Positions 1 to 49,701 of a stretch of 64,000 nucleotides of DNA are shown piece after piece (the stretch's first letter is position 1; each line of letters begins with the position of its first letter). Made by a program: the position numbers and the translations under genes. Below the pieces are notes generated by a model, which saw only the letters and a program-made list of their open reading frames with translations, searched no databases and was not told the origin of the DNA. Source of the stretch: an uncultured Candidatus Saccharibacteria bacterium (GTDB taxonomy: Bacteria > Patescibacteriota > Minisyncoccia > Phycocordibacterales > Phycocordibacteraceae); NCBI GenBank assembly GCA_964652615.1, contig CAZZAT010000002.1, positions 7,296 through 71,295 of the forward strand, written 5' to 3'.

Positions 1-471
1 GCGCACATCCGCACCCTCATCCTTACCTTGTTCTATCGCCACTTCCGCGCTGTCATCGATGGCGGCTTCGTATACATCGCACAGCCGCCCCTCTACAAGA
101 TTAAGCGCGGCAAAGAAGTGCACTATGCATACACGGACGAGGAGAAGTTTAAGATAGTAGGGAAAGATGCAGAGATAGAAACAGGAGAAGGAGAGGAGCC
201 GGAGGAGGAAGAGGAGGGTGCAGAAGAGGATACAAAGAAAAAGACCGCGTCCAAGAAGTTCTCCATTCAGCGCTATAAAGGTCTTGGAGAAATGAATGCG
301 TCAGAATTGTGGGAGACCACCATGGATCCAAAAGCACGTGTCTTGAAGCAGGTAGAAGTGGAGGATGCCGCCGAAGCAGATCGCATCTTTGATGTGCTTA
401 TGGGTACCGACGTTGCTTCGCGCAAGTCATTTATTCAATCAAACGCAAAGCTTGCGAATCTGGACGTGTAA
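1..471 (+). CDS. gyrB: DNA gyrase subunit B, C-terminal fragment (5' end outside window)
   Basis: The frame is open from nt 1 (AHIRTLILTLFYRHF...). It carries the conserved GyrB C-terminal motifs PLYKIKRGK, YKGLGEMN, LWETTMDP and DAAEAD, and includes an acidic insert. Confidence 0.9.
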   Translation, partial: AHIRTLILTLFYRHFRAVIDGGFVYIAQPPLYKIKRGKEVHYAYTDEEKFKIVGKDAEIETGEGEEPEEEEEGAEEDTKKKTASKKFSIQRYKGLGEMNASELWETTMDPKARVLKQVEVEDAAEADRIFDVLMGTDVASRKSFIQSNAKLANLDV

Positions 472-481
472 CATGACGAGC

Positions 482-512
482 CCCTCTTGCGAGGGGCTCT
501 GGGTTTTTAGGG
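482..512 (+). terminator. Intrinsic terminator downstream of gyrB
   Basis: Hairpin agcccctc-ttgc-gaggggct followed by ctgggttttt. Confidence 0.6.
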
Positions 513-629
513 CGTGCCGTGCGAGAAGGCGATCATGAAGGCAGCAATGCCTCCTGCAATTCCGACGTACAACACGGCGCGAGCGATGTGGCCGAGAAGC
601 GTGAGTTTCCCGTCTTTCGTCACAAGCAT
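507..629 (-). CDS. Small hydrophobic peptide (40 aa; MLVTKDGKLTLLGHIARAVLYVGIAGGIAAFMIAFSHGTP), absent from the ORF track because it is under 60 aa
   Basis: An ATG is preceded by AGGGAG at 6-7 nt spacing, with its own promoter-like element upstream and the stop inside a hairpin. The product has a single predicted TM helix. Confidence 0.3.
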   Translation of the reverse strand: MLVTKDGKLTLLGHIARAVLYVGIAGGIAAFMIAFSHGTP

Positions 630-655
630 AGGTTTCTCCCTGTTACCTGAATTTA

Positions 656-683
656 ATGATATCATAAATGAATATAAAGTCAA
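656..683 (-). promoter_or_regulatory. Putative sigma70-like promoter for the small ORF at 507-629
   Basis: On the minus strand, TTGACT (plus 678-683), a 16-nt spacer, then TATCAT (plus 656-661). Confidence 0.3.
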
Positions 684-720
684 GAAGAAACCGCCTCGGG
701 TATTCCGAGGCGGTTTCTTC
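684..720 (-). terminator. Strong hairpin (16-bp perfect stem) immediately downstream of the CARDB gene
   Basis: gaagaaaccgcctcgg-gtatt-ccgaggcggtttcttc, a perfect inverted repeat; on the minus strand it is followed by a T-rich stretch. Confidence 0.55.
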
Positions 721-729
721 GTTCTCCCG

Positions 730-1464
730 TTAGTCTATCTCAAGCTCGATAGAGCGGTCGTTGTTTCGCTCGTTAGACTCATCAACGCGGTCGTCGTAGT
801 CGACTTCAATGTCGATATCAATATCGCGATTCTCGCGAGGGTCTTCGATGCGAAGCGTGAAGTTCTGGTAGCCGTTTGGCATAAGGTAGCCGCCGTTGCC
901 GCGCACCGTATCCTCGCCCGTTACCTCTACCTGAACGCGCCAGCCGCTTGCGGCGTTGGTGCCAATGTTCTTTACGGTAAAGCGGACAGCGCCATCGCGG
1001 TTTGAAGGAACGGTATCATCTTCAACAAACGTCGAACCGCGGAAATAGCCTGCCTCAAGATCTGTTATGACAAGATCAGCGCGTCCGTAGAGTTCAGGTG
1101 TCTGCGGGTAATACACCGGAGTCTGGGGGTAATAGACTGGTGGGTTTGGAGAAACAGCAACGGGAGGCGTCACAACTTGTGGGCCACCTGTCTGTGGGGT
1201 GGAAGGAGTTTCTGGTGCAGGAGCCTCTTCCTCCTCTTCGACAGGAGCAGCAGGGGCCTCTTCCTCTTCAGGATTTTCCTCGTTGTCAGAAGAGAGAATA
1301 ACTGCAGAAGAAAGACGTGAAAGGGTTTCTGGAACGTAGCGTGCTGCGTAGATAGCAAGAAAGATGCCCGCTATGATGAGCGCGCCAAAACCAACGATAG
1401 CGAGGCCGTTTACGGCCGCTTTCTTCGTTTCTTCAGAGTTTGCCATACCAAAGGAGCGTACCAC
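730..1464 (-). CDS. Membrane-anchored CARDB-domain protein
   Basis: An N-terminal TM helix, a Pro/Glu-rich linker (PVYYPQTP repeats) and a C-terminal CARDB-like beta-sandwich (DLVITDLE...VKNIGTNAASG...ESNERNND). Confidence 0.7.
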   Translation of the reverse strand: MVRSFGMANSEETKKAAVNGLAIVGFGALIIAGIFLAIYAARYVPETLSRLSSAVILSSDNEENPEEEEAPAAPVEEEEEAPAPETPSTPQTGGPQVVTPPVAVSPNPPVYYPQTPVYYPQTPELYGRADLVITDLEAGYFRGSTFVEDDTVPSNRDGAVRFTVKNIGTNAASGWRVQVEVTGEDTVRGNGGYLMPNGYQNFTLRIEDPRENRDIDIDIEVDYDDRVDESNERNNDRSIELEID

Positions 1465-2290: not shown

Positions 2291-2995
2291 ATGAAGGATA
2301 GTGAACAAAACCAGAAGCTTTCTGGGTGGGTGAAGTTGAGTATCGGCATTGTTCTGGCACTCCTTTTTGGTGTTTCGTTCCAACTCGATCCTTTTGGAAC
2401 TGGAAACGGTCCAGAGGCACGAGTTGGAGGCATTCTTCCACAAATTCGTATTTGGATGGAAGAGCGCGAAACAGCAGAAAAAGAAAAACAGGAACGTGTT
2501 GAGCGAGACGTTGCTGAGGTTGTTGAGCCGGAGGCAAAAGCTACGCCACGCCCAAATCGAGCACGACGTGTTTCCACACAAAGAGAGCCGACACTACATG
2601 TCTTAAATGGGACATATGGCGACTTTGAAGCGACAGGCACGTTTGCCGATATAGGCACACACCGGCTCGCTCCTGGTTCACACGTATCAACTTCCATATA
2701 TCTGCCTTCGAGAAATGGAGTTGGGTCTGTTTCGATAGATTTTGGCCCGCGCAGAGTGGACGCAACTGGTATTTTCCATGCGAAACTGCCACGATACGTC
2801 CGAAATCTGCGAACGGGAGACTTCATCGATCTTGCTTCACGTCGCTATAGGCTTGTCATTTCAACTGATGACGAGAGATATCGAGGCTGTGGTGCTCGTT
2901 ACAACATTCTCGAGGAAGGCGACTCTACAGGCTGGTTTTATGGAGCAGACAGAATATTTTGTGCAAGAAATGAAGGGGTCCCCGACCTCTACTGA
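2291..2995 (+). CDS. Hypothetical membrane-anchored extracytoplasmic protein
   Basis: A strong SD (AAAGGAGG) and an N-terminal TM helix; no recognisable domain. Confidence 0.6.
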   Translation: MKDSEQNQKLSGWVKLSIGIVLALLFGVSFQLDPFGTGNGPEARVGGILPQIRIWMEERETAEKEKQERVERDVAEVVEPEAKATPRPNRARRVSTQREPTLHVLNGTYGDFEATGTFADIGTHRLAPGSHVSTSIYLPSRNGVGSVSIDFGPRRVDATGIFHAKLPRYVRNLRTGDFIDLASRRYRLVISTDDERYRGCGARYNILEEGDSTGWFYGADRIFCARNEGVPDLY

Positions 2996-4801: not shown

Positions 4802-6133
4802 ATGAACACCATTACTACCACTATGAAAAGTCCAATACTCGGCTATTCCGGTCTCTTTGGCATGCTTGTAGCGCTTGCGCTTGGCGTAGCGTTTGCTTTC
4901 GCGTCCGGTCTTGCAACCCCGCAACCTGCAAACGCGTACATCGCCGACTACGGTGATTGTTACGATTGTGGCGGATGGGAACAGGGCTACGACACGTACA
5001 TCCCGTACGACGACTATGGTTACGGATGGGAACAGGGCTACGACACGTACATCCCGTACGATGATTATGGCTACTATTGGGAGCAGGGATACGACACCTA
5101 CATTCCGTACGATGATTACGGGTACGACTACTACGACTACGGGTATTACGATGATTCGTACTACTACGACTACACCGACTACTACGCGTACGACTACTAT
5201 GACTACGGGTACTACGATTCGTACGACTACGACTGGTACTACGACTACGACTATGATTACGGCTGCTACAGCGGCTGCAATCCGCCCACCTTCGACTATT
5301 GTTCGAACATCCCAGGCAACCAGCCTGCAGGCTACAACTGCTACCCAGACAACGGCTGCCATAACCACTGCAACCCTCCGCACGACGAGTGTTCCAACAT
5401 TCCTGGCAACCAGCCTGATGGCTATGACTGCTACCCTGACCACGACACGGAACCCGTTTGTACGCTCTCTGCTGACGATAAGAACCTAGAGGAAGGGGAC
5501 TCAACAAAGCTTCGCTGGACGAGCGATAATGCAACGTCTGCAAGCCTTACCTCTTTCGGTTCTGTATCAACGGACGGCACTAAAACCGTATCGCCAACGT
5601 CTGATAAGACGTACACCCTTACGGTGCGCGACAATGATGGCGACACTGATACGTGTTCTGTAACCATTCGTGTCGAGGAAGAGGATGAAGATGAGGAGGA
5701 ACCATGGTGCCGCCTCACCGCATCTGACTCTCGTGTTGATGAAGGCGATCGCATTACCCTTGAATGGGATACGCGAAACGCAGACTACGCTTCTATCAAT
5801 CAGGGCATTGGCCGTGTTGATGAAGATGGCGGCGAAGAGCGCTTCACTATGGATGATGACGACATCACCTTCCGCATGACGGTTCGCAATAGCGACGGCG
5901 ACGAGGATACGTGTTCAACCACGGTTCGCGTTGACGAAGAGAACGATTTCTCTTCAGTCTCGTTCGAAGGTGAGCCGGTAAACAACCCTCCTGTGGTGTA
6001 CCTCTCGTCGCTGCCATACACGGGTATCGAAGACCTTTCACCTTCTATGATTGGCTTCCTCGCAACCCTTCTTGCCCTTATGGGTATGGGCGGCTACTAC
6101 TTCTTCGTGAAGCGTAAGCAGGTTATTGCCTAA
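4802..6133 (+). CDS. LPxTG-type cell-wall-anchored surface protein with a Tyr/Asp-rich repeat region
   Basis: A signal peptide; three tandem 17-aa repeats (GWEQGYDTYIPYDDYGY) followed by a long Y/D low-complexity tract; two Cys repeats (CNPPxxDxCSNIPGNQPxGYxCYPD); two approximately 80-aa Ig-like repeats; and a C-terminal LPYTG sorting signal with a hydrophobic segment and a KRK tail. Confidence 0.75.
   Translation: MNTITTTMKSPILGYSGLFGMLVALALGVAFAFASGLATPQPANAYIADYGDCYDCGGWEQGYDTYIPYDDYGYGWEQGYDTYIPYDDYGYYWEQGYDTYIPYDDYGYDYYDYGYYDDSYYYDYTDYYAYDYYDYGYYDSYDYDWYYDYDYDYGCYSGCNPPTFDYCSNIPGNQPAGYNCYPDNGCHNHCNPPHDECSNIPGNQPDGYDCYPDHDTEPVCTLSADDKNLEEGDSTKLRWTSDNATSASLTSFGSVSTDGTKTVSPTSDKTYTLTVRDNDGDTDTCSVTIRVEEEDEDEEEPWCRLTASDSRVDEGDRITLEWDTRNADYASINQGIGRVDEDGGEERFTMDDDDITFRMTVRNSDGDEDTCSTTVRVDEENDFSSVSFEGEPVNNPPVVYLSSLPYTGIEDLSPSMIGFLATLLALMGMGGYYFFVKRKQVIA
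4973..5125 (+). repeat. Three tandem 51-nt repeats inside the surface-protein gene
   Basis: Units at 4973-5023, 5024-5074 and 5075-5125 are near-identical (ggatgggaacagggctacgacacgtacatcccgtacga...). Confidence 0.85.
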
Positions 6134-6802: not shown

Positions 6803-8062
6803 TTACTTGTGAGTGGTCTTACGGCTGTGTACATGTTCTAAGAACACATCAACGGTCATAGCGTCAAGTTTTCCTTCGTCGCGTCCCTCAACCGAAACCG
6901 TCTTCGCTTCAACTTCTGCATCTCCAACCACAAGGAGGTAGGGAACCTTCTCTTCTTTGCCGCTTCTAATCTTTTTTCCAAGCGATTCGTTTGAAGCATC
7001 ACACTCTACGCGTATATCCTTAGCGCGAAGCGTGTCTGCAACTTCTTTTGCATATGCAAGGTGTTTTTCAGAAACGGGAAGCACCTTTGCTTGTACTGGA
7101 GAGAGCCAGAGCGGAAATGCGCCTTTGTATTTCTCGATAAGGAAGGCCATAGTCCGCTCAATCGAGCCGATAGAGGAGCGGTGCACGACGAAAGTACGAT
7201 GCTCCTTGCCGTCCTCGCCTATGTACGAGAGATTGAACTTCACCGGAGAAGAGAGGTCGTACTGCACGGTAAACGCAGTATCTTCCTTGCCGTTGACGTT
7301 CTTCATCTGAATATCAATCTTGGGGCCATAGAAAGCGGCCTCGTCTTTTTCTTCAACGAACGCAACGCCGCGCTTGTGCATTGCTTCGCGAAGCAGTGTT
7401 TCGGCCTTCTCCCAGCCAGCATCATCCTTGAAGTACTTCTCGGTATTCGCGCGATCTCCAAGCGACAAACGATACGAATAGTCCTCGCCCATCTTGAGCC
7501 CGAGGACGCCGTTTGCGTATTCAATAAGATCGAGCGCCTTGTGTATCTCTTCAATAGCCTGCTCCTCGGAAGCGCAAATAATATGTGCGTCTGAAAGACA
7601 GAAACTGCGGACTCTTTGAAGGCCCATTAATTCTCCCGACTGCTCGTAGCGGTACAGCTTTGCAAGTTCTGCATAGCGGATAGGGAGTTCGCGGTAGCTG
7701 TGCGGCTCGCGAAGATAGAGTTCGAAGTGGTGCGGGCACGTCATCGGACGGAGCATGAACTGCTCGTCTTCGTCGGTGATAGGCGCGTACATCGAATCTT
7801 TGTAGTGCGGGTAGTGGCCTGACTTCTCATAGAGTCCAAGCTTCGCCATGTCCGGCGTAATCACATGCTGATATCCGCGGCGTATCTCCTCATCGACGAT
7901 AAAGCGCTCAAGCTCGCGGCGTATTGTTGCACCCTTTGGCGTAAAAAGCGGCAAGCCTTTGCCGACAACATCCGAGAAGGCAAAGAGGTCGAGCTCCTTG
8001 CCAAGCCTCTTATGGTCATTCTCCTTTCCTTGGTTAGGTTCCATACCAGTCGAGAATAACAC
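6803..8062 (-). CDS. thrS: Threonyl-tRNA synthetase, minimal form (catalytic core plus anticodon-binding domain; no N-terminal TGS or editing domains)
   Basis: Class II aaRS motifs (HKRLGKELDLF, PMTCPHH, FVVHRSSIGSIER) and a C-terminal anticodon-binding domain; only 419 aa. Confidence 0.9.
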   Translation of the reverse strand: MLFSTGMEPNQGKENDHKRLGKELDLFAFSDVVGKGLPLFTPKGATIRRELERFIVDEEIRRGYQHVITPDMAKLGLYEKSGHYPHYKDSMYAPITDEDEQFMLRPMTCPHHFELYLREPHSYRELPIRYAELAKLYRYEQSGELMGLQRVRSFCLSDAHIICASEEQAIEEIHKALDLIEYANGVLGLKMGEDYSYRLSLGDRANTEKYFKDDAGWEKAETLLREAMHKRGVAFVEEKDEAAFYGPKIDIQMKNVNGKEDTAFTVQYDLSSPVKFNLSYIGEDGKEHRTFVVHRSSIGSIERTMAFLIEKYKGAFPLWLSPVQAKVLPVSEKHLAYAKEVADTLRAKDIRVECDASNESLGKKIRSGKEEKVPYLLVVGDAEVEAKTVSVEGRDEGKLDAMTVDVFLEHVHSRKTTHK

Positions 8063-8072
8063 ACAACGCGCT

Positions 8073-11000
8073 TTAGAGCGGCTTTACGTTCTCAAGGGCA
8101 AGCGATATTTCTCCATTTCTTGAGGAAACTTTTGCCTTTATCAGCATGCAATTGCCGGCCGATAGAAGCTTGGCATGTTCCTTGAAAAGGCGCGGGAAGG
8201 CCACTGCTTCAATAGATCCTGTCTTATCCTCAAGCTTTAGAAACGCCATCTTCTCGCCGCCCTTGGTGAGTATCGCGCGCGCCTCAGTAATAAGGACAGG
8301 GAGTATGAGTGTCATGCCGACCACCGGTTCTTCAAGGAGCGCTGCAATCGTCGTACCTGCTTTCGATGACTTCTCGGCATGCGCATCAAGCGGATGCCCG
8401 GAGACATAGATACCAAGCAGTTCTTTTTCCCATGCAAGCTTGTCGATAAGGGAGGTAACGGAGTCTGCAGAAGGCAGGGTAAGCGTGGGCGGGGCAACGG
8501 CGCCAAACAAAGAGTCTTGCGCTTGGGGTGCTGTTGCGTCCCGATGGAAAGTGAGCAGGGTCTCGATGTGCGCAATGAGATGCGAGCGTTCGCCAAGCGC
8601 ATCAAGCGCACCGCACTTAATCAAGGACTCAAGCGACTTCTTATTCAGATTCTTCGATCCGATACGAACGAGAAACTCCGAAAGGGAAGCAAACGGACCC
8701 CTCTCACGCTCTTGCATGATACTTTCTGCAATACCTTCGCCAAAGTTCTTAATTGAAGAGAGGCCGAAGCGTATCTTTGTTCCCGCATCAACGATGGTAA
8801 AGGTAGAGCGACTTTCGTTGACGTCTGGAGGAAGCACTGGTATCGAAAGGCGCTCGCATTCAGCGGCAAGCACGGCAATCTTCTCAACATCGCCCGCGTC
8901 TGCGGTAAGAAGAGCGGCCATGTATTCAACAGGGTAGTTGGCCTTCATATAGGAAGTCTGATACGCCACTTTGCCGTAGCTTGCTGCGTGTGAGTTGTGC
9001 ACAATGATGTCGTTTGCAATGAAGTTTTGAAGAACAGACACAGAGAGGTCGTAGGTCATTTCTTCTCCATCAGGTTCAATACTGCGGATTTCATCCCAAA
9101 ACACGTCGCTTCTTGCATGCTCGGCAAGCGTCTTTGAAGAGAGGGCTACAGCAGTTTTCTCAAGCACTGCACGCGTATATCCGCGCTTTCGTGTGTCTTC
9201 ATAGAAAAGGCGTTCTGAAAGATTTGTACATCGTGCAAGTTCTGCTATAGGCACTCCTTGCCGTGCAGCTTCTGCACGTATGTGTTCGAGTATCTGCGCC
9301 GGAACAGTATCTGCTGTTCCTCGTCCTCGTGCATTGGTCCGTACGGAACAAAGGCGCACCAAAAGTGCGAGCGAATCGCGTTTTGTTCCGATAAGGTGTG
9401 CGCCAGCAGTTTTTTCAAACCGTGTAAGATTTTCTATACCCGTAACGGTAACGGTATACCCGATACGCAAGCTCCCGCGATACCAAAATTGTTTACGATG
9501 TATCGTTGAAAGTATTGAAAGGCGAAGAAGTACATGCTGTACGTCGTGCGCAAGGTGCTTAGAGCTGGTCGCATAGAACACCTGCTGATTTTTGAGGGAA
9601 ATAGCTCCATCTCCCTGCCACATCTTCCCGAGCATGAGTGCAAGAGAATCGTTGTTCCAGGTAAGCACTGAATCAGGAATTTCTTTCTCTGTAGCGCGCT
9701 TCCCTCGAATACCAAGTCTCTCTGCCCATACAAGCATGCCATTTTGTTCTTTCTGGGTACGTCTGCCTACATATGCGCTTATAGCAGCTTTTGAACGATT
9801 TAAGGTCACTTGTGTGCCCGGGAAGCAGAGCGCTGCACGCGAGAAATCTGCAATCTCATTTTCCTGTGTCGAGTACATGTATAAACCATGCGGATGGCAC
9901 AGATTTCCCTCCGAGAGCAAATATCCAAGCGCTGCCGCTTCGTGTGCTGGGGCTGCACAGGATTCCGTTGGTTCGGGGAGATGGCGTGGAACAGCGATAC
10001 GTGCGCCAGCAGACAGCTCGCCAAGCGGGCGCCACCCTGCAAATGTGAGCAGAGGATGATTGTCTGTTGCACGAATAGTACGGCCGGAACGGGTGGTAAG
10101 GCGGAAGACACGCTTTACGCCATTTTCTCTAACCCAAGAGCCTTGTCCCTCTACAAGCTTCTGGCCTTTCGACAAAGCGAGTACGGGCACTTTACCTTTC
10201 GTTTCAATAAGGGTTTTCAGTGATGTGCGAGAACCTGTTTTTGGATTGTAAATACACGTATCACCCGTTAAGCACTTATTAAACCCATACGCTGCAAAGG
10301 GTTCGATAAGTTTCCAAAGCTCTTCCGCACGCTTTTGTGGGAGCTTTCCATGCTCTACAAAGCCACTAATAAGCTTCTCGCGTTCCGCTTCCATCACTTC
10401 CGGAATCTTCTTACCCATCGCTTTGCGGAGCATGTCTGCCTGAAGCCACGAATAGCCGCCAAGCGTAATCGAGGTCAAAAGCACGTCGTCTTGGTACACC
10501 AGAAGGCCGTAGGAAGCGTCGAGGTAGTCTTTCATGCGCTCATCCATATACGTAATGAGCTTCGGGTTTCGTTTGCGCTCGATGTACTGCGGGATGGTTT
10601 CGATAGGGCCGGGGCGATAGAGCGCCACCATAGCGTTGATGTCATGGATGGTTGTAGGCCGGAGTTCCTTCAGATACCGAGTCATGCCCGAGCCGTTTAA
10701 CTGGAAGGTGCCTTCTGTTTCTCCGCGCGCAAGCATGGCAAAAGTCTTCTCGTCATCAAGCGGCACGTTTTCAATATCAATGACGATGCCGCGCGTTTCT
10801 CGCACGCGCTCCACCGAGTCTGCGAGAATGGCGAGGTTCTTGATGCCAAGGAAGTCGAACTTCAAAAGGCCCGCATCCTCAATGGAATGCATATCGTACT
10901 GGGTGATAAGCTTGCCTGTTTTTTGGTCGGTCTGAAGCGAGGTCCACTCGGTCAGCGGCGTAGGGGAAATAACGACGCCAGCGGCATGTACGCCCGTGTG

Positions 11001-12491
11001 GCGGGCAGAACCTTCAATACGCCGTGCAAGATCAATAATTTCCTTCACATCATCATCTTCTTGGTAGAGCTGCTTCAACTCTTCTTCCATCGTAAGCGCG
11101 CGGTCAATAGTCATAGGGAATCCTTGAGAGCCAAGGGGAATGAGCTTTGCAATGCGATCTCCCGTGCCGTATGCGTGTCCCAAAGCGCGCGCAACGTCGC
11201 GCACTGCCGCTCGCGCAAGCATGGTTCCAAAGGTGCCTATCTGCGCAACGTGGTCTTCACCATACTTTCTTTTTGCGTACGCAATCATCTCGTCGCGCCT
11301 ATCGTCGGCGAAGTCCATGTCGATGTCGGGCGCTGACGGACGCTCGGGGTTCAAGAAGCGCTCAAACGGCAGCTTGTATTTCATCGGGTCTACGTTGGTA
11401 ATGCGGGCAAGATAGGTAACTAGCGATCCTGCAACCGAGCCGCGAATGGTGGTTAGGATGTGGTTTTCGTGAGCGAAGTTGAGAAGGTCGGATACAACAA
11501 GGAAGTAAGGCGCATAACCCTTTTGCTTGATGACCGAGAGCTCGTATTCAATGCGTTTTTCAACTTCCGGTGTCTTCTCCATGCCGCGTGCAGACAATCC
11601 TGCATAGGCTTTTGCCCGAAGTTCTTCGTCGTGGTCGCTAAATCCTTCAGAGACCGCAAGCGCAGGGAACACCCATTTGCCAAGTTCAAATTCAAGAGTG
11701 CAGCGCTCTGCTATTTCTCCTGAACGGTCGACTGCCTCTCCCATATCTTTGAACCATGCGCGCATATTCTTTTCGGATACAAACGAGAAGTCTTCCTTTT
11801 CGTTGTATCCTTCGCTTCCTTGCTGGATGCGCCGCAATACCGCACATGCTTCGCGGTCATCAGGGGAGAGGTAGTACACATCATGCTGCGCAACGAGCGG
11901 CACGCCGCTTTCTTGCGAGAGCTTCTTAATCTGTTCCATCTTTTGCGCGTGCCCTTCTACCGATGGGTGGTGCGTAATTTCAAGGAAGACATTTTCTTTT
12001 CCGAAGATGCTTTGCCAATGAGCAAGAGCGGCCGCAGCTCCTTTTGCGTCGCCTCGTGAAAGCAATTGTGACGTGTCTCCTGCAAAAGAAGGAATGAGCG
12101 CAATGAGTCCTTTCGCATGTTTTTGCAGAAGCTCGCGGTCCATGCGCGGGCGCTCAAAAAAGCCATCGGTATACGAAGCAGTCACAAGCGCAAGCAAGTT
12201 CTTATACCCTTCCTGATTTTCAACAAGAAGCACGAGGCGCGAGCGCTTTTCATCTCGGTCGTGCACTAATCGTGATGCGGGAGCGATATAGGCATCAACA
12301 CCAAGCACTGCTTTAATGCCCGCCTTCTTCGCTTCTTTATAAAACTCAATTGCGCCATGCAGGTTGCCTTCATCGGTTAGGGCAAGCGCTTCCATGCCTT
12401 CCTTTTTTGCAGCCTCGACAAGCTCAGGCACTTTCGGAAGGGCTTTTAAGAAAGAGTAGTGGCTGTGGGTGTGTAGGTGAACGAATGCCAT
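8073..12491 (-). CDS. dnaE: DNA polymerase III alpha subunit (DnaE) interrupted by an in-frame intein
   Basis: An N-terminal PHP domain (MAFVHLHTHSHYSF), a polymerase core and a C-terminal OB fold. The conserved GFNK|SHAASY motif is split by a 427-aa insertion. Confidence 0.9.
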   Translation of the reverse strand: MAFVHLHTHSHYSFLKALPKVPELVEAAKKEGMEALALTDEGNLHGAIEFYKEAKKAGIKAVLGVDAYIAPASRLVHDRDEKRSRLVLLVENQEGYKNLLALVTASYTDGFFERPRMDRELLQKHAKGLIALIPSFAGDTSQLLSRGDAKGAAAALAHWQSIFGKENVFLEITHHPSVEGHAQKMEQIKKLSQESGVPLVAQHDVYYLSPDDREACAVLRRIQQGSEGYNEKEDFSFVSEKNMRAWFKDMGEAVDRSGEIAERCTLEFELGKWVFPALAVSEGFSDHDEELRAKAYAGLSARGMEKTPEVEKRIEYELSVIKQKGYAPYFLVVSDLLNFAHENHILTTIRGSVAGSLVTYLARITNVDPMKYKLPFERFLNPERPSAPDIDMDFADDRRDEMIAYAKRKYGEDHVAQIGTFGTMLARAAVRDVARALGHAYGTGDRIAKLIPLGSQGFPMTIDRALTMEEELKQLYQEDDDVKEIIDLARRIEGSARHTGVHAAGVVISPTPLTEWTSLQTDQKTGKLITQYDMHSIEDAGLLKFDFLGIKNLAILADSVERVRETRGIVIDIENVPLDDEKTFAMLARGETEGTFQLNGSGMTRYLKELRPTTIHDINAMVALYRPGPIETIPQYIERKRNPKLITYMDERMKDYLDASYGLLVYQDDVLLTSITLGGYSWLQADMLRKAMGKKIPEVMEAEREKLISGFVEHGKLPQKRAEELWKLIEPFAAYGFNKCLTGDTCIYNPKTGSRTSLKTLIETKGKVPVLALSKGQKLVEGQGSWVRENGVKRVFRLTTRSGRTIRATDNHPLLTFAGWRPLGELSAGARIAVPRHLPEPTESCAAPAHEAAALGYLLSEGNLCHPHGLYMYSTQENEIADFSRAALCFPGTQVTLNRSKAAISAYVGRRTQKEQNGMLVWAERLGIRGKRATEKEIPDSVLTWNNDSLALMLGKMWQGDGAISLKNQQVFYATSSKHLAHDVQHVLLRLSILSTIHRKQFWYRGSLRIGYTVTVTGIENLTRFEKTAGAHLIGTKRDSLALLVRLCSVRTNARGRGTADTVPAQILEHIRAEAARQGVPIAELARCTNLSERLFYEDTRKRGYTRAVLEKTAVALSSKTLAEHARSDVFWDEIRSIEPDGEEMTYDLSVSVLQNFIANDIIVHNSHAASYGKVAYQTSYMKANYPVEYMAALLTADAGDVEKIAVLAAECERLSIPVLPPDVNESRSTFTIVDAGTKIRFGLSSIKNFGEGIAESIMQERERGPFASLSEFLVRIGSKNLNKKSLESLIKCGALDALGERSHLIAHIETLLTFHRDATAPQAQDSLFGAVAPPTLTLPSADSVTSLIDKLAWEKELLGIYVSGHPLDAHAEKSSKAGTTIAALLEEPVVGMTLILPVLITEARAILTKGGEKMAFLKLEDKTGSIEAVAFPRLFKEHAKLLSAGNCMLIKAKVSSRNGEISLALENVKPL
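8994..10274 (-). mobile_element. Intein (427 aa) with LAGLIDADG-like homing endonuclease domain in dnaE
   Basis: Spans aa 740-1166 of DnaE. It starts with Cys1 (CLTGDTCIY, block A), has a TxxH block B (TDNH), LAGLIDADG-like motifs (LGYLLSEGNL and LALMLGKMWQGDGAI), and ends in VHN followed by a Ser +1 extein residue. Codons verified: 10272-10274 revcomp tgc (Cys) and 8994-8996 revcomp aac (Asn). Confidence 0.8.
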
Positions 12492-45388: not shown

Positions 45389-47779
45389 TTACATCCCCCG
45401 AATCATATCCTTTTCAATATCTGCAAACGTACCACCTACTTTCTTTCCCGGATTCAAGATATTCAAAGGATCAAAGATACGCTTCGTCTCTTCAAAGAGA
45501 GCCATCATATCCGGACCAAACATATGGGGCAGATAGGGCGTTCGTATGATGCCGTCATTGTGCTCTCCAGTGGTTGAGCCGCCATACTCCATCACCAACT
45601 CATATACGCGCGGGGAAAGTTCGAGGATAATTCTATGCGACTCTTCCTTTGCAAGATCCATAAGCGGGATGATGTGGAAGTTGCCGTTGCCGATATGGCC
45701 TGCAATGGTGTAGATGAGATCGTACTCGGCAAGGAGTTTGTTTAGGCGCGGCAGAAACTCGGGATAACTGTCTGGCGGTACAACAAAGTCATCGATAAAA
45801 GGGGCAGCGTATAAGCCCTTTAGGTTCTTGCGAAGCAGCGAGAAGCTCTCCCGTCGCACTATCCAGTACTTTTCTGCACCTGCCTCATTCTTTTTGACGC
45901 TCGTAGGAAGTCCCATATCGGCAAGCGCTGCTTTTGCTTCTTCCGCCTTGCGTACCGCCTCTTCAGGCGTATCTTCGGAGAACTCTGCCATGAGAACGAG
46001 CTTTGGTACGCCGCCCTGAAGCGCCATCATAACTTCTGGAATAAAAGAAATACCAAGGCGTGCGGCGCGTACAAAGCCCATCTGCGAGAGCATCTGCGGC
46101 AAGTACTTTAGGGCAAGCGAGAAAGTATGGTCGTCATAGGATTCAAATGATTCAGGATTTGATTTTAAGACCCTGCGTACAATTTCCGGCAAGGGCGCAA
46201 GGTCTTTCAAGAAGATGACGAGCATGGCGCGCGATGGTTGTGGCGTCACCAGTTTCAAGGTCATAGAGGTGGTGAGTGCAAGCGTTCCTTGCGCACCACA
46301 CAGGAGCTTCGCAAGATTGAAGGTTCCGTTCTCAACGTCAAAGACATTCCAGAGCGCATAGCCCGCAGAGTTCTTTGAGACGGTAGGTCGATGTGCCTCT
46401 ATGACCTCGCGATTCTTTACGATAAGGTCGCTCATCCTGCGATAGATATCACCCTCAAGGGTAGGGAGCTTCTTCTTTTCAAGAAGCTCGTCTGGCCCAA
46501 GCTCTCCAAAGGTTGCAAGCGAACCGTCTGAAAGCACCACCTCTGTTGAGACGACATAGTTCTCGGTCTTGCCGTATTCAAGGGTCCGCTCTCCGCCTGA
46601 ATTGTTGTTGAATATGCCTCCCATCGCAGCAATAGAGCGCGAAGCAGGGTAGGAGGGGAGGATGAGGTTTTTAGCGAGCGTTGCTTTCTCAAAGTCTCGG
46701 TAGTAGACCCCTGGTTCGGTTGTTGCCTGTCCTTTTTCAATCGTCCCAATATGGTTCATATACTTCGTAAACACGGCAACAACCGAACGGGTCAAAGGAC
46801 CGCCGCTCATATCAGTACCTGCGCTTCGTGCTGTTATCGACACTTCTTCTCCAGCACTCTTTGCGTCATGTATCTTTTTCACAAGCGCTCCCACTTCCTC
46901 CTTGTTCTTTGGAAACACCACAAGAGAAGGCGTGCGCTCAAACACGCTCGTATCGCGCGCGTATTTCTTGCGCACCTCAAGAGCATCTTCTGCTTCAATG
47001 CCAGCTTCTTGAAGCAAGGAACGAAGCGGGCTGCCGATAAGCTCCTCGATAAGTGCAGCGGTCTCTTCGGGGCCTTTAACCGCATGCGTTGTGATGCCGG
47101 TTGTCTTTACGATTTCGTCATTGCCGCCTGGAAAGAGAGCATCTCCCGTGTAGAGCATTTCAGAAACAGGGATGCCAGTCATTTTCGAAAGCTCCTCTAC
47201 GCCATACGCTTTGGTCATTCCTTCCTTTGTTATATCTATCGAACTCATTGCATTTACGCGTACCGAGAACCCTGGAAGCGCCTTTCGAAGTATCTTTGCA
47301 AGCGGTTCGCGCTTCTTCTTGTCAGGATCCCATGTTTGTTTTTCTTCAGGAGGAGCTTCTTGTCCCAACCCCGAGAACGTAATCTGTGCACCGCGATCTT
47401 CAATGCGCTCACCCCATACCTTTTCAGGGGGCGTATCCATGCCCGTTTTTTTGAGTCCGTCATCAAGAGCGGTAAGCACCTTTTCGCGCTCCTGTTTGGT
47501 AAAGCGGTGCGTATAGACGGTTTTCCATCCAGAGCCCGTGTACTGCAGGCACTCCGCAGCACTTACGGGGAAGAGATAGAGTTTTTCAAAGCGCGCAGTT
47601 TTCGGTATGGCAGAGATGAGCTGTGTTTCAATTTGCTCCCAAGAACCTCCGGTCATCACTGCGACCGGCATCTTTTCAAGAAGGCGGGCAAGCAAAGCGC
47701 CCATGTCTTTTTCAACAGGGGACTTGCTCTTTGCAAGCGTTCCATCAAGATCAAATATTGCTATGCGCGGCTTTTCCAT
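45389..47779 (-). CDS. Fusion protein: eukaryotic-type phosphomannomutase (HAD) N-terminal domain joined to an FAD-linked oxidase (GlcD/D-LDH-like)
   Basis: At the N-terminus, IAIFDLDGTLA and YTGDALFPGGNDEIV match PMM-family HAD motifs. At the C-terminus there is a PCMH-type FAD-binding domain (VVFPKNKEEVGALVKKIHDA...ARSAGTDMSGGPL) plus an FAD-oxidase C-terminal domain. The start was moved to M41. Confidence 0.7.
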   Translation of the reverse strand: MEKPRIAIFDLDGTLAKSKSPVEKDMGALLARLLEKMPVAVMTGGSWEQIETQLISAIPKTARFEKLYLFPVSAAECLQYTGSGWKTVYTHRFTKQEREKVLTALDDGLKKTGMDTPPEKVWGERIEDRGAQITFSGLGQEAPPEEKQTWDPDKKKREPLAKILRKALPGFSVRVNAMSSIDITKEGMTKAYGVEELSKMTGIPVSEMLYTGDALFPGGNDEIVKTTGITTHAVKGPEETAALIEELIGSPLRSLLQEAGIEAEDALEVRKKYARDTSVFERTPSLVVFPKNKEEVGALVKKIHDAKSAGEEVSITARSAGTDMSGGPLTRSVVAVFTKYMNHIGTIEKGQATTEPGVYYRDFEKATLAKNLILPSYPASRSIAAMGGIFNNNSGGERTLEYGKTENYVVSTEVVLSDGSLATFGELGPDELLEKKKLPTLEGDIYRRMSDLIVKNREVIEAHRPTVSKNSAGYALWNVFDVENGTFNLAKLLCGAQGTLALTTSMTLKLVTPQPSRAMLVIFLKDLAPLPEIVRRVLKSNPESFESYDDHTFSLALKYLPQMLSQMGFVRAARLGISFIPEVMMALQGGVPKLVLMAEFSEDTPEEAVRKAEEAKAALADMGLPTSVKKNEAGAEKYWIVRRESFSLLRKNLKGLYAAPFIDDFVVPPDSYPEFLPRLNKLLAEYDLIYTIAGHIGNGNFHIIPLMDLAKEESHRIILELSPRVYELVMEYGGSTTGEHNDGIIRTPYLPHMFGPDMMALFEETKRIFDPLNILNPGKKVGGTFADIEKDMIRGM

Positions 47780-47781
47780 AG

Positions 47782-49701
47782 CTAGTTCCAGGTAAGTGCT
47801 TTCATGATGCGCGAAAGAGAGGCAGTTGCAACGCCAACCACTTTGTCTGCACCTCCGTAGTACATAAAGAGGGTATCGCCACGAAGTACGAGGCCGCACG
47901 GAAAGACAACGTTTCCAATCTCACCCACTTTCTCGTAGTCAGTTTCAGGCTCAAATATTGGGTCTGCGCTTCGGGCAAGTACGGTGGTGCCGTGCTCATC
48001 AAGGAGTGCCGCACCCACGCGATAGCGGGAGCGATGTGAGACGCCATGATAGAGCATGAGCCAGCCGCCCTTCACTTTAACGGGCGGCGCTGCAATACCC
48101 ACCTTCGCTGCGTCCCAGAGCCCCTCTCGTGGTCCCATAATTTCAATACACTTTGAGACGCGCTTTCCAGAATGGAGATCAGGAAGCACATCTGCGCAAA
48201 TGCGCCTTGATACGCGGTGATACAGAAGATAGCCATCTTCCCGTTTCTCTGGCAGGAGCGCCAAGTCTTTATCATCAACATCATCCGGCGTCACAAGAAG
48301 CGGCTCCGTCCACTTGTCGAACTCTTTATTGCGGAACTCTTCGAGAGAGAGCGACGTAATGGCGCCAATAGGGGCATGCACGCCATCATAGGCGGTATAC
48401 GTCATATAGATGCGATCATCGATGACAACGGTGCGCGGATCCTCACACCCTGAATTGCCGTCCGGTTTTCCTTGCTTCATCTCAAAAGGAGCGCGCGGTC
48501 CATAGATAGGTACAGAAAGCCGCTCACTAATCTGGAGCCCATCTTCGCTTCGTGCATAGCCAACAGTGGAAGTATTCGGGTTGTCCATCGCTCTATAGAA
48601 AATATGTACGGAACCATCGAGCTCAAACGCTGCAGGATTAAAGACCAGCTTTTCTTCAAAGGTATTTTCAGGCTGCGGAGAGAGTATAGGGTTTCCGGGG
48701 AAGCGGACAAACAAAGGATCTTCTTTTGCAGTGAGTGCTTCAAGCAAGTCCGGCAAATGAAGTGCGGCCCGTGCGCATGTGGTATCGGCTGCGCCATAGT
48801 AGAGATCGAGCGTGTCTCCGCGCAGAAGCGCTCCGGAAGGGAAGACGATGTTTGGGATAAGGCCGAAGCGCTCATACACTTCTTCAGCTACCATGAAGGG
48901 GTAGGTTCGACTCTTTAAGATGCGCGGGTCCTCTAGATCAAGAAGAAGCGCCTCAACGCCAAACATACGCTCCTTTTCGTTGTAGTAGCGCTGGGTATAG
49001 GAATAGAGGAGAAGCCAGCCTTCATCTGTCTTTACGGGCGGCGCCCCTATCTCTACATGGTCATCATCGCTGCGGCGCAAGTTCGGCAGCGCATGCTCGC
49101 TCAAGTGCTCGTGCCACTCTCGCCAGAAGTCATGGTTCCAGAAATCTTCCATGTTTTTGACGCGCGCAATGCCAATGGTTGGACGCGGATGCTCTGGCGT
49201 GAAATCGGTATGCACTGTTACGAGCGCAACATACTCGCCATTAATCTTTTCTGGAAACAAAGCAAACGCTTTTGCATTAAAGGGAGTAAGCAGGTGGCGC
49301 TCATCAAAGTCTTCGCCGTTATGGGAAATAGCGAGCGCTGCCTTAATGTTGTCTGGTCCGTACGGGTGTCCGCCAAGAGCTGTGTAGGAAAGATACGTGA
49401 TGCCATCGATGATGGTTGCGCGCGGATCTTCGCACCCAAACGCTTCCCAGTCGTGCATAGGCGCTATGACCTGCCGATGGTGGGAGAAGTGCGTACCGTC
49501 TCTGGACTCTGCCATGCCTATCGTCGATTCAGGAGAAAAGGGCGCGATGATAGCCTGCGGGTTTGCAAGCGCGCGATAGTACATGCGCAGCTTTCCGTGC
49601 TCTTTCACCACTGACGGATTGAATGCAGCAAGCGCTTCCCATGGATGCTCGCGCCGTGGCGCAAGGAGCGGGTTTTCAGGATCTCGTTTGACGATAAACA
49701 T
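47782..49701 (-). CDS. Glycoside hydrolase family 130 protein with two tandem GH130 domains
   Basis: Two copies of the approximately 300-aa GH130 (DUF377) fold, each with AFNP...YRA, CEDPR and YYGGAD motifs. Confidence 0.8.
   Translation of the reverse strand: MFIVKRDPENPLLAPRREHPWEALAAFNPSVVKEHGKLRMYYRALANPQAIIAPFSPESTIGMAESRDGTHFSHHRQVIAPMHDWEAFGCEDPRATIIDGITYLSYTALGGHPYGPDNIKAALAISHNGEDFDERHLLTPFNAKAFALFPEKINGEYVALVTVHTDFTPEHPRPTIGIARVKNMEDFWNHDFWREWHEHLSEHALPNLRRSDDDHVEIGAPPVKTDEGWLLLYSYTQRYYNEKERMFGVEALLLDLEDPRILKSRTYPFMVAEEVYERFGLIPNIVFPSGALLRGDTLDLYYGAADTTCARAALHLPDLLEALTAKEDPLFVRFPGNPILSPQPENTFEEKLVFNPAAFELDGSVHIFYRAMDNPNTSTVGYARSEDGLQISERLSVPIYGPRAPFEMKQGKPDGNSGCEDPRTVVIDDRIYMTYTAYDGVHAPIGAITSLSLEEFRNKEFDKWTEPLLVTPDDVDDKDLALLPEKREDGYLLYHRVSRRICADVLPDLHSGKRVSKCIEIMGPREGLWDAAKVGIAAPPVKVKGGWLMLYHGVSHRSRYRVGAALLDEHGTTVLARSADPIFEPETDYEKVGEIGNVVFPCGLVLRGDTLFMYYGGADKVVGVATASLSRIMKALTWN

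Follow-up and report, generated by a model that had tools for sequence, protein, structure and literature searches.

Among characterised inteins, the closest relatives by sequence of the insert described here are the DnaB inteins of the Ssp DnaB/Mtu DnaB type (PRK07773; PDB 1mi8, 6frg and 4o1r). The insert interrupts dnaE, the gene for DNA polymerase III subunit alpha (Pol III alpha), in a 64,000-nucleotide stretch of DNA (the window, analysed over its full length) from an uncultured Candidatus Saccharibacteria bacterium (assembly GCA_964652615.1, contig CAZZAT010000002.1, positions 7,296 to 71,295). The PRK07773 match takes in the endonuclease, and metagenomic DnaB inteins are approximately 33% identical to the insert at 100% coverage. 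DnaB inteins have in common with it Cys1, a TxxH motif, an NF[VI]ANDIIVHN↓S end (arrows denote splice junctions) and Ser+1. However, DnaB inteins are inserted at RESG↓...↓SIEQD, whereas the window intein lies at GFNK↓...↓SHAA of DnaE, and this difference in host and site despite the homology of the inteins implies an ancient transfer from one replisome gene to another and not membership of a DnaB allele.

The cyanobacterial split DnaE intein (Ssp/Npu) occupies the same host protein and the same fingers motif, but is encoded by two genes, lacks an endonuclease and is followed by Cys+1, whereas the window intein is contiguous, carries an endonuclease and is followed by Ser+1. Sequence similarity between the two is marginal (7qil, E = 0.04). 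An original prediction, made from the window sequence, had suggested a distinct insertion allele three residues downstream of the split-intein site; the site is indeed a different one, but the split intein (KFAEY↓intein↓CFN, PDB 1zde) lies four residues (G, F, N and K) upstream of FNK↓SH. At the level of the fold, the first Foldseek matches of the predicted intein structure to the PDB are full-length, endonuclease-bearing inteins, namely TliVMA (7qss; E = 1e-23, TM-score 0.75), PI-PfuI (1dq3), PI-PkoII (2cw7) and PI-SceI (1vde). These have the same architecture of HINT, double-motif LAGLIDADG and accessory domains (E = 1e-23 to 1e-9, TM-scores up to 0.75), at identities of just 10–18%, and are archaeal or yeast inteins found in other proteins (VMA, ribonucleotide reductase and PolB).

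In the main text of their survey, Novikova et al. (2016, PMC4760082) describe the fingers of Pol III alpha as a hot spot for inteins. Insertion points a–d and g fall there within 75 residues, the split intein occupies point a, and no hosts from the Candidate Phyla Radiation (CPR) are listed. FNK↓SH was not matched to any published Pol III alpha point letter, the main text of that survey giving no residues, and a literature search returned nothing specific on this DnaE site or on inteins in CPR/Patescibacteria. Here we propose that the insert in DnaE is, very probably, a class 1, contiguous, full-size intein in the fingers region, belonging to a family that occupies FN[K/R]↓SH in many Patescibacteria (CPR) genomes and also in proteins labelled Chloroflexota and Actinomycetota.

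Insertion site and splicing residues

The dnaE precursor is encoded on the minus strand at 8073..12491 and comprises 1472 amino acids (aa) plus a stop codon in the list of open reading frames (ORFs), with one intein. The product is identified as DNA polymerase III subunit alpha by NCBIfam PRK05673 (1102 bits), and the ORF contains the Pfam domains PHP, DNA_pol3_alpha, DNA_pol3_finger, HHH_6 and an OB fold. The N-extein (aa 1–739, 10275..12491, minus strand) ends in EPFAAYGFNK, with the Lys-1 codon AAG at 10275–10277, and is followed by the intein (427 aa, precursor aa 740–1166, 8994..10274, minus strand; 47.3 kDa, calculated pI 9.5) and by the C-extein (aa 1167–1472 plus stop, 8073..8993, minus strand), which starts with Ser+1 (codon TCA, 8991–8993) in SHAASYGKVAYQTSYMKANYP. 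On the minus strand, 8994..10274 is thus an open 427-aa segment, CLTGDTCIYN...NFIANDIIVHN, between the two exteins; a plus-strand reading was ruled out by its many stop codons.

Deletion of the insert restores the YGFNKSHAA fingers motif without a gap, and the shortened protein aligns gaplessly through F-A-x-Y-G/A-F-N-K-S-H-A/S-A with the Pol III alpha structures of Taq, M. tuberculosis and E. coli. In the alignment of the spliced DnaE to these structures, the junction corresponds to K758↓S759 of E. coli and K815↓S816 of Taq, and at the DNA level the reconstituted intein-less junction reads ...GAACCCTTTGCAGCGTATGGGTTTAATAAG↓TCACACGCAGCAAGCTACGGCAAAGTGGCG.... An identical 1472-aa DnaE recurs on contigs of two independent sequencing runs (at least two Logan assemblies, SRR15237804 and SRR15237806), which rules out an assembly artefact.

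Profile matches of the insert alone are far beyond chance. These include Pfam Intein_splicing (E = 6e-20) and LAGLIDADG_3 (E = 2e-14), NCBIfam TIGR01445 intein_Nterm (E = 1.7e-10) and TIGR01443 intein_Cterm, and PRK07773 (intein-containing DnaB), which matches over the whole 427 aa (E = 4e-79). The closest solved structures by sequence are the Ssp DnaB and Npu DnaB mini-inteins and the Mtu RecA intein. All class 1 residues are in place, comprising Cys1 (precursor C740), Thr70/His73, Asp409, His426-Asn427 and Ser+1 (Ser1167). In a 50-sequence family alignment, C1, T70, H73, D409, H426 and N427 are each present in 50 of 50 members, as is Ser+1 in the 50 intein-containing alleles, and this invariance holds among sequences that are mutually just 30–73% identical. 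An extra cysteine close to Cys1, Cys7, is not kept among relatives. We infer that the DnaE precursor splices, given the essential role of dnaE and the intact set of active-site residues. The intein is real and canonical, and probably functional in full.

Profiles, residues, clean excision and predicted fold concur with the original prediction of a full-size class 1 intein with a LAGLIDADG endonuclease at GFNK↓SH of dnaE. Its coordinates, in-frame length and quoted peptides were exact, with the minus strand left unstated, and translation located the CLTGDT start, the TDNH block B, the two LAGLIDADG-like motifs, the VHN end and Ser+1 that it had listed. It had proposed an alignment to intein-free DnaE, which is gapless once the insert is removed, and had named the absence of blocks A, B, F and G as evidence for a lineage-specific insertion; all four blocks were found, and Cys1 and Asn427 fit as intein termini.

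Domain architecture and endonuclease

An AlphaFold2 model of the intein, built from 34 homologues, reached a mean confidence (pLDDT) of 94.4 and a predicted TM-score of 0.93. The modelled layout consists of a beta-rich lobe (1–100), an alpha/beta domain (110–311), a small helical domain (323–387) and a beta lobe (391–427). The HINT N-terminal lobe (intein aa 1–100, 9975..10274, minus strand) is matched by TIGR01445 and aligns with the Ssp DnaB mini-intein over aa 2–103. It contains block A (Cys1-LTGDT, 10257–10274, minus strand) and block B (T70-D-N-H73, intein residues 70–73, within 10047–10073, minus strand), and its model superposes on the Ssp DnaB and Mtu RecA mini-inteins at 0.8–1.2 Å over approximately 97 columns. 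The HINT C-terminal lobe (aa 388–427, 8994..9113, minus strand) is matched by TIGR01443, aligns with Ssp DnaB residues 116–159 and contains block F (TYD409LSVSVLQ416NF) and block G (IANDIIVH426N427). Foldseek also superposes the splicing lobes of the model on the Npu DnaB mini-intein, the lobes fitting DnaB and RecA mini-inteins to within approximately 1 Å.

Between the two splicing lobes lies the LAGLIDADG homing-endonuclease domain (aa 110–311, 9342..9947, minus strand), which is recognised by Pfam LAGLIDADG_3 and by Foldseek, the latter matching I-DmoI, I-Tsp061I and, within PI-PfuI and the TliVMA intein, the endonuclease portions. Motif 1, LGYLLSEGN (aa 116–124, 9903–9929, minus strand), carries the catalytic Glu122, and motif 2, LGKMWQGDG (aa 215–223, 9606–9632, minus strand), the catalytic Asp222. 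The predicted helices 110–122 and 208–222 terminate at these two acids, each of which is followed by Gly (S-E122-G and G-D222-G). The small helical accessory domain (aa 323–387, 9114..9308, minus strand; predicted helices 328–338, 343–350, 354–357, 368–378 and 381–387) may, judging from the model, represent a ‘stirrup’-like DNA-binding module. The whole-chain model matches PI-PfuI and the TliVMA intein with the accessory domain included in the chain.

The original prediction had stated that the first LAGLIDADG motif lacks its acidic residue and that the endonuclease may be decaying. Neither claim is borne out, as Glu122 sits at the catalytic position of LGYLLSEGN and both acids are kept family-wide. 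Position 122 is Glu in 49 members and Asp in one, and position 222 is Asp in 50 of 50. Mean pairwise identity is 0.49 for the LAGLIDADG domain, which aligns without any gap, compared with 0.42 for the N-terminal splicing lobe and 0.35 for the accessory helical domain. All family members are 421–439 aa in length, none having shrunk to a mini-intein.

From what is known of the chemistry of class 1 inteins and of LAGLIDADG enzymes, the following course can be proposed. Translation would yield the 1472-aa precursor, in which Cys740 (intein C1), aided by Thr70 and His73 of block B, would carry out the N-S acyl shift at Lys739. The hydroxyl of Ser1167 (+1) would then attack the thioester, giving a branched ester by transesterification, and cyclisation of Asn1166, aided by His426 and Asp409, would release the 47-kDa basic intein. 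A final O-N shift would produce a 1045-aa (116 kDa) DnaE with YGFNKSHAA restored. The free intein is predicted to act as a double-motif LAGLIDADG endonuclease (Glu122 and Asp222) that most likely cuts intein-less dnaE across ...TATGGGTTTAATAAG↓TCACACGCAGCAAGC..., and recombinational repair of the cut allele would copy the intein in (homing).

Distribution, mobility and the residue at +1

A pattern scan of GTDB species-representative genomes returned 55 loci from 54 genomes, and the intein junction YGFN[K/R]↓C...HN↓SH was found at 53 loci in 52 of these genomes, so the insertion allele, whose rarity the original prediction had implied, is common in public genomes. Two loci were left out of the 53, one with the N-terminal junction and an unverified C-terminal end (L050) and one that is an unrelated weak match (L057). 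Among the 53, L047 and L053 each hold one half of a copy that is divided between two contigs of a single genome, and L052 has the N-terminal junction only, followed by a frameshift. In this last locus (103..1357 of a 2.6-kb contig from a metagenome-assembled genome), the reading frame of the same DnaE intein is lost (27 stops in the frame used by tblastn), through either decay of the copy or faulty assembly. The family alignment took 49 loci that are intact across both junctions and sufficiently long. Most FN[K/R]↓SH loci are labelled Patescibacteria/CPR, including Kaiser-, Taylor-, Nomura-, Yonath-, Uhr-, Moran-, Yanofsky-, Magasanik-, Staskawicz- and Harrisonbacteria and ‘Saccharibacteria’.

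Across the metagenomic, GTDB and cluster-representative searches, the closest intein relatives are 48–54% identical to the window intein. The eight best metagenomic matches are all pieces of DnaE with YGFNK↓CLT[GA]DT or IIVHN↓SHAA. An exhaustive HMMER search of 1.84 billion cluster representatives (50% clustering) yielded 6585 matches at E ≤ 1e-3 and 546 at E ≤ 1e-30. Approximately 59 of the best 149 cluster representatives are DnaE with the FN[K/R]↓SH junction, and most of the others are DnaB inteins at two sites. Clusters of the DnaE intein include members labelled by NCBI as Chloroflexota (MBI5711861.1) and Actinomycetota (MGH2829945.1). In a listing of homologous proteins, the matches listed were all shorter than approximately 1.75 times the query length, that is, gene fragments, and are unusable for estimating the fraction of intein-carrying genomes. 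Within this well-populated allele, itself part of a known hot spot, the window intein is a new and divergent member.

Related and neighbouring insertion sites were also encountered. A related full-size intein (P0044, 31% identity) resides in a dCTP-deaminase-like host at ICFNK↓CLTGDT...IIVHN↓STY, its N-side flank FNK being as in DnaE. Three loci (L033, L035 and L037) carry a second intein of approximately 375 aa beside the FNK↓SH intein, at the fingers site FQ[FL]E↓C...VHN↓S[SD]GM, which is empty in the window (DnaE aa 598, at approximately 10698). Also empty in the window DnaE are the fingers sites TYGT↓C, occupied in P0053, and YGVF↓C...VVHN↓CFQE, occupied in the dnaE of Paenarthrobacter plasmid pYJN5-1. 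A six-frame phmmer search of the 64-kb window found no second copy of the intein, the intein itself being the sole match.

The distribution of the intein among relatives is patchy. Intein-free DnaE fragments are up to 71% identical to the window DnaE over the junction region, the nearest intein-containing extein being 72% identical, and an intein-free locus (L058) shares the window gene order nusB-NUDIX, rnhB, dnaE, thrS. The GC content at third codon positions (GC3) is 0.417 in the intein versus 0.560 in the exteins, and lies below that of every one of 67 stretches of 427 codons sampled from the remaining genes of the window (mean 0.562, sd 0.045, minimum 0.433). Intein and extein pairwise distances are correlated (Mantel r = 0.57, 0 of 2000 permutations as high), and in at least one discordant pair (L034/L037) the inteins are 69% identical and the exteins 51%. 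These comparisons suggest mostly vertical inheritance in this group with some lateral transfer. Site-specific cleavage and homing by the intein are supported indirectly, by the conserved catalytic residues, the patchy distribution, the atypical GC3 and the one discordant pair.

The residue at +1 differs between intein-containing and intein-free alleles. The Ser+1 codon of the 50 intein-containing alleles is TCN in 49 and AGT in one, whereas 94 (87%) of the 108 intein-free DnaE fragments that span the junction (noted for the protein set P0121–P0240 and at L058 4522 and L059 3867) have Ala+1 (FNK-A-H) and 14 have Ser. The association of Ser+1 with intein presence gives a Fisher p of approximately 1e-28, with kinship ignored. 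An Ala+1 allele cannot host a functional intein in the essential dnaE, since Ser is obligatory for splicing, and its GCN codon would also alter the presumed endonuclease target. Ala+1 may be ancestral, with Ser brought in alongside the intein by co-conversion, or it may be a derived resistance allele. More speculatively, and with rather less than even likelihood, the FN[K/R]↓SH intein could be an old, mostly vertical resident of Patescibacteria whose endonuclease is under purifying selection, with Ala+1 as an ‘immunity’ allele in which the nucleophile is lost and the target altered, so that invasion is lethal or blocked; or the intein could be kept as a replication splicing switch.

Several points weigh against the interpretation of the insert as a functional, homing intein. 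Splicing and DNA cleavage are both predictions from sequence, and the residue at block F position 416, which is His in 41 of the 50 family members, is Gln in the window intein and could slow the C-terminal splicing step. The GC3 deviation could stem from the amino-acid and codon make-up of the intein rather than from recent acquisition. No relative exceeds 54% identity, so a donor or a recent transfer cannot be named, and a scan of viral contigs as possible vectors returned no relative of the intein. Likewise, tblastn searches of phages and plasmids found only distant inteins (at most 31% identity) in terminase, helicase or other dnaE sites.

One alternative is that the intein is real but its endonuclease degenerate, making it an immobile passenger under purely vertical inheritance. 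The correlated divergence of intein and extein is expected under vertical descent, motif 2 of a metagenomic relative (P0001) reads WQGGG instead of WQGDG, and L052 is frameshifted. However, we consider this account unlikely, given that Glu122 and Asp222 are present here and the acids kept in 50 of 50 members, that the endonuclease domain is free of indels and more conserved than the N-terminal splicing lobe, that no member is a mini-intein, and that the intein is patchily present among close relatives and atypical in GC3. Co-option, in which conditional splicing regulates DnaE maturation (a general proposal for replisome inteins) and/or the endonuclease serves a host function, would suit the position of the intein in a functional fingers motif that is an intein hot spot in the main text of Novikova et al. 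(PMC4760082), as well as its intact and mostly vertical retention over deeply diverged CPR lineages. Yet the sequence indicates no sensor, Cys7 is not conserved in relatives, many close relatives have no intein, and ongoing homing is a simpler account of endonuclease conservation, which together make co-option improbable.

There is next to no likelihood that the segment is something other than an intein, whether an insertion domain particular to this lineage of DnaE, an assembly chimera or a bacterial intein-like (BIL) domain. Blocks A, B, F and G are complete and accompanied by a +1 nucleophile, the boundaries restore the host motif exactly, the fold combines HINT and LAGLIDADG domains, and the identical protein recurs in independent assemblies and the same junctions in 50 genomes. 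BIL domains are HINT domains of proteins that are variable or poorly conserved, and they usually lack both an endonuclease and a nucleophile at +1, whereas the host site here is conserved and essential, and Ser+1 and an endonuclease are both present. No support was found for any of these three candidates, which were rejected on the basis of junctions, residues, fold and independent assemblies.

Neighbouring genes and implications

The genes of the window include rpoB, rpoC, dnaG, an SMC protein and ribonucleotide reductase. Downstream of dnaE, threonyl-tRNA synthetase (ThrRS; 6803..8062, minus strand) is 419 aa long, with a class II core and an anticodon domain and without the SAD/editing domain, whereas the ThrRS of the syntenic intein-free locus L058 is 581 aa long with tRNA_SAD. 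A 443-aa protein encoded at 4802..6133 (plus strand) has no Pfam match and is rich in Tyr and Asp (12.6% Y, 14% D). It contains three WEQGYDTYIPYDDYGY repeats and two Cys-bounded repeats of approximately 85 aa, and its C-terminal end, consisting of LPYTG (aa 404), a hydrophobic stretch and KRK, makes it look like a sortase-anchored surface protein. An 836-aa fusion (45389..47899, minus strand) joins an N-terminal phosphomannomutase/HAD-like hydrolase part to an FAD-linked oxidase (FAD_binding_4 and FAD-oxidase_C). The 234-aa ORF at 2291..2995 (plus strand) has no Pfam match and the lowest GC3 in the window (0.383 versus a mean of 0.554), and may be foreign or not a real gene. No tRNA gene or Rfam family reached threshold in tRNA and Rfam scans of the 64 kb.

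For annotation, the mature polymerase would be 1045 aa rather than 1472 aa in length, and the 427-aa insert should be labelled as an intein with an endonuclease. The current understanding of inteins is unchanged by the window intein, although as a contiguous, compact-lobed, DnaB-like intein with Ser+1 it could interest protein engineers. The FNK↓SH site is a further instance of the known concentration of inteins in the fingers of DnaE, where CPR/Patescibacteria hold a large and diverse family. The most interesting by-product of the analysis is the Ser/Ala polymorphism at +1 across CPR DnaE, since the perfect link between Ser+1 and the intein, set against intein-free relatives that mostly have Ala+1, provides a tidy natural data set on intein invasion and resistance. 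If the tentative ‘immunity’ reading of Ala+1 is true, it would imply a long cycle of homing versus resistance within an essential replication gene across a whole radiation of ultra-small bacteria.

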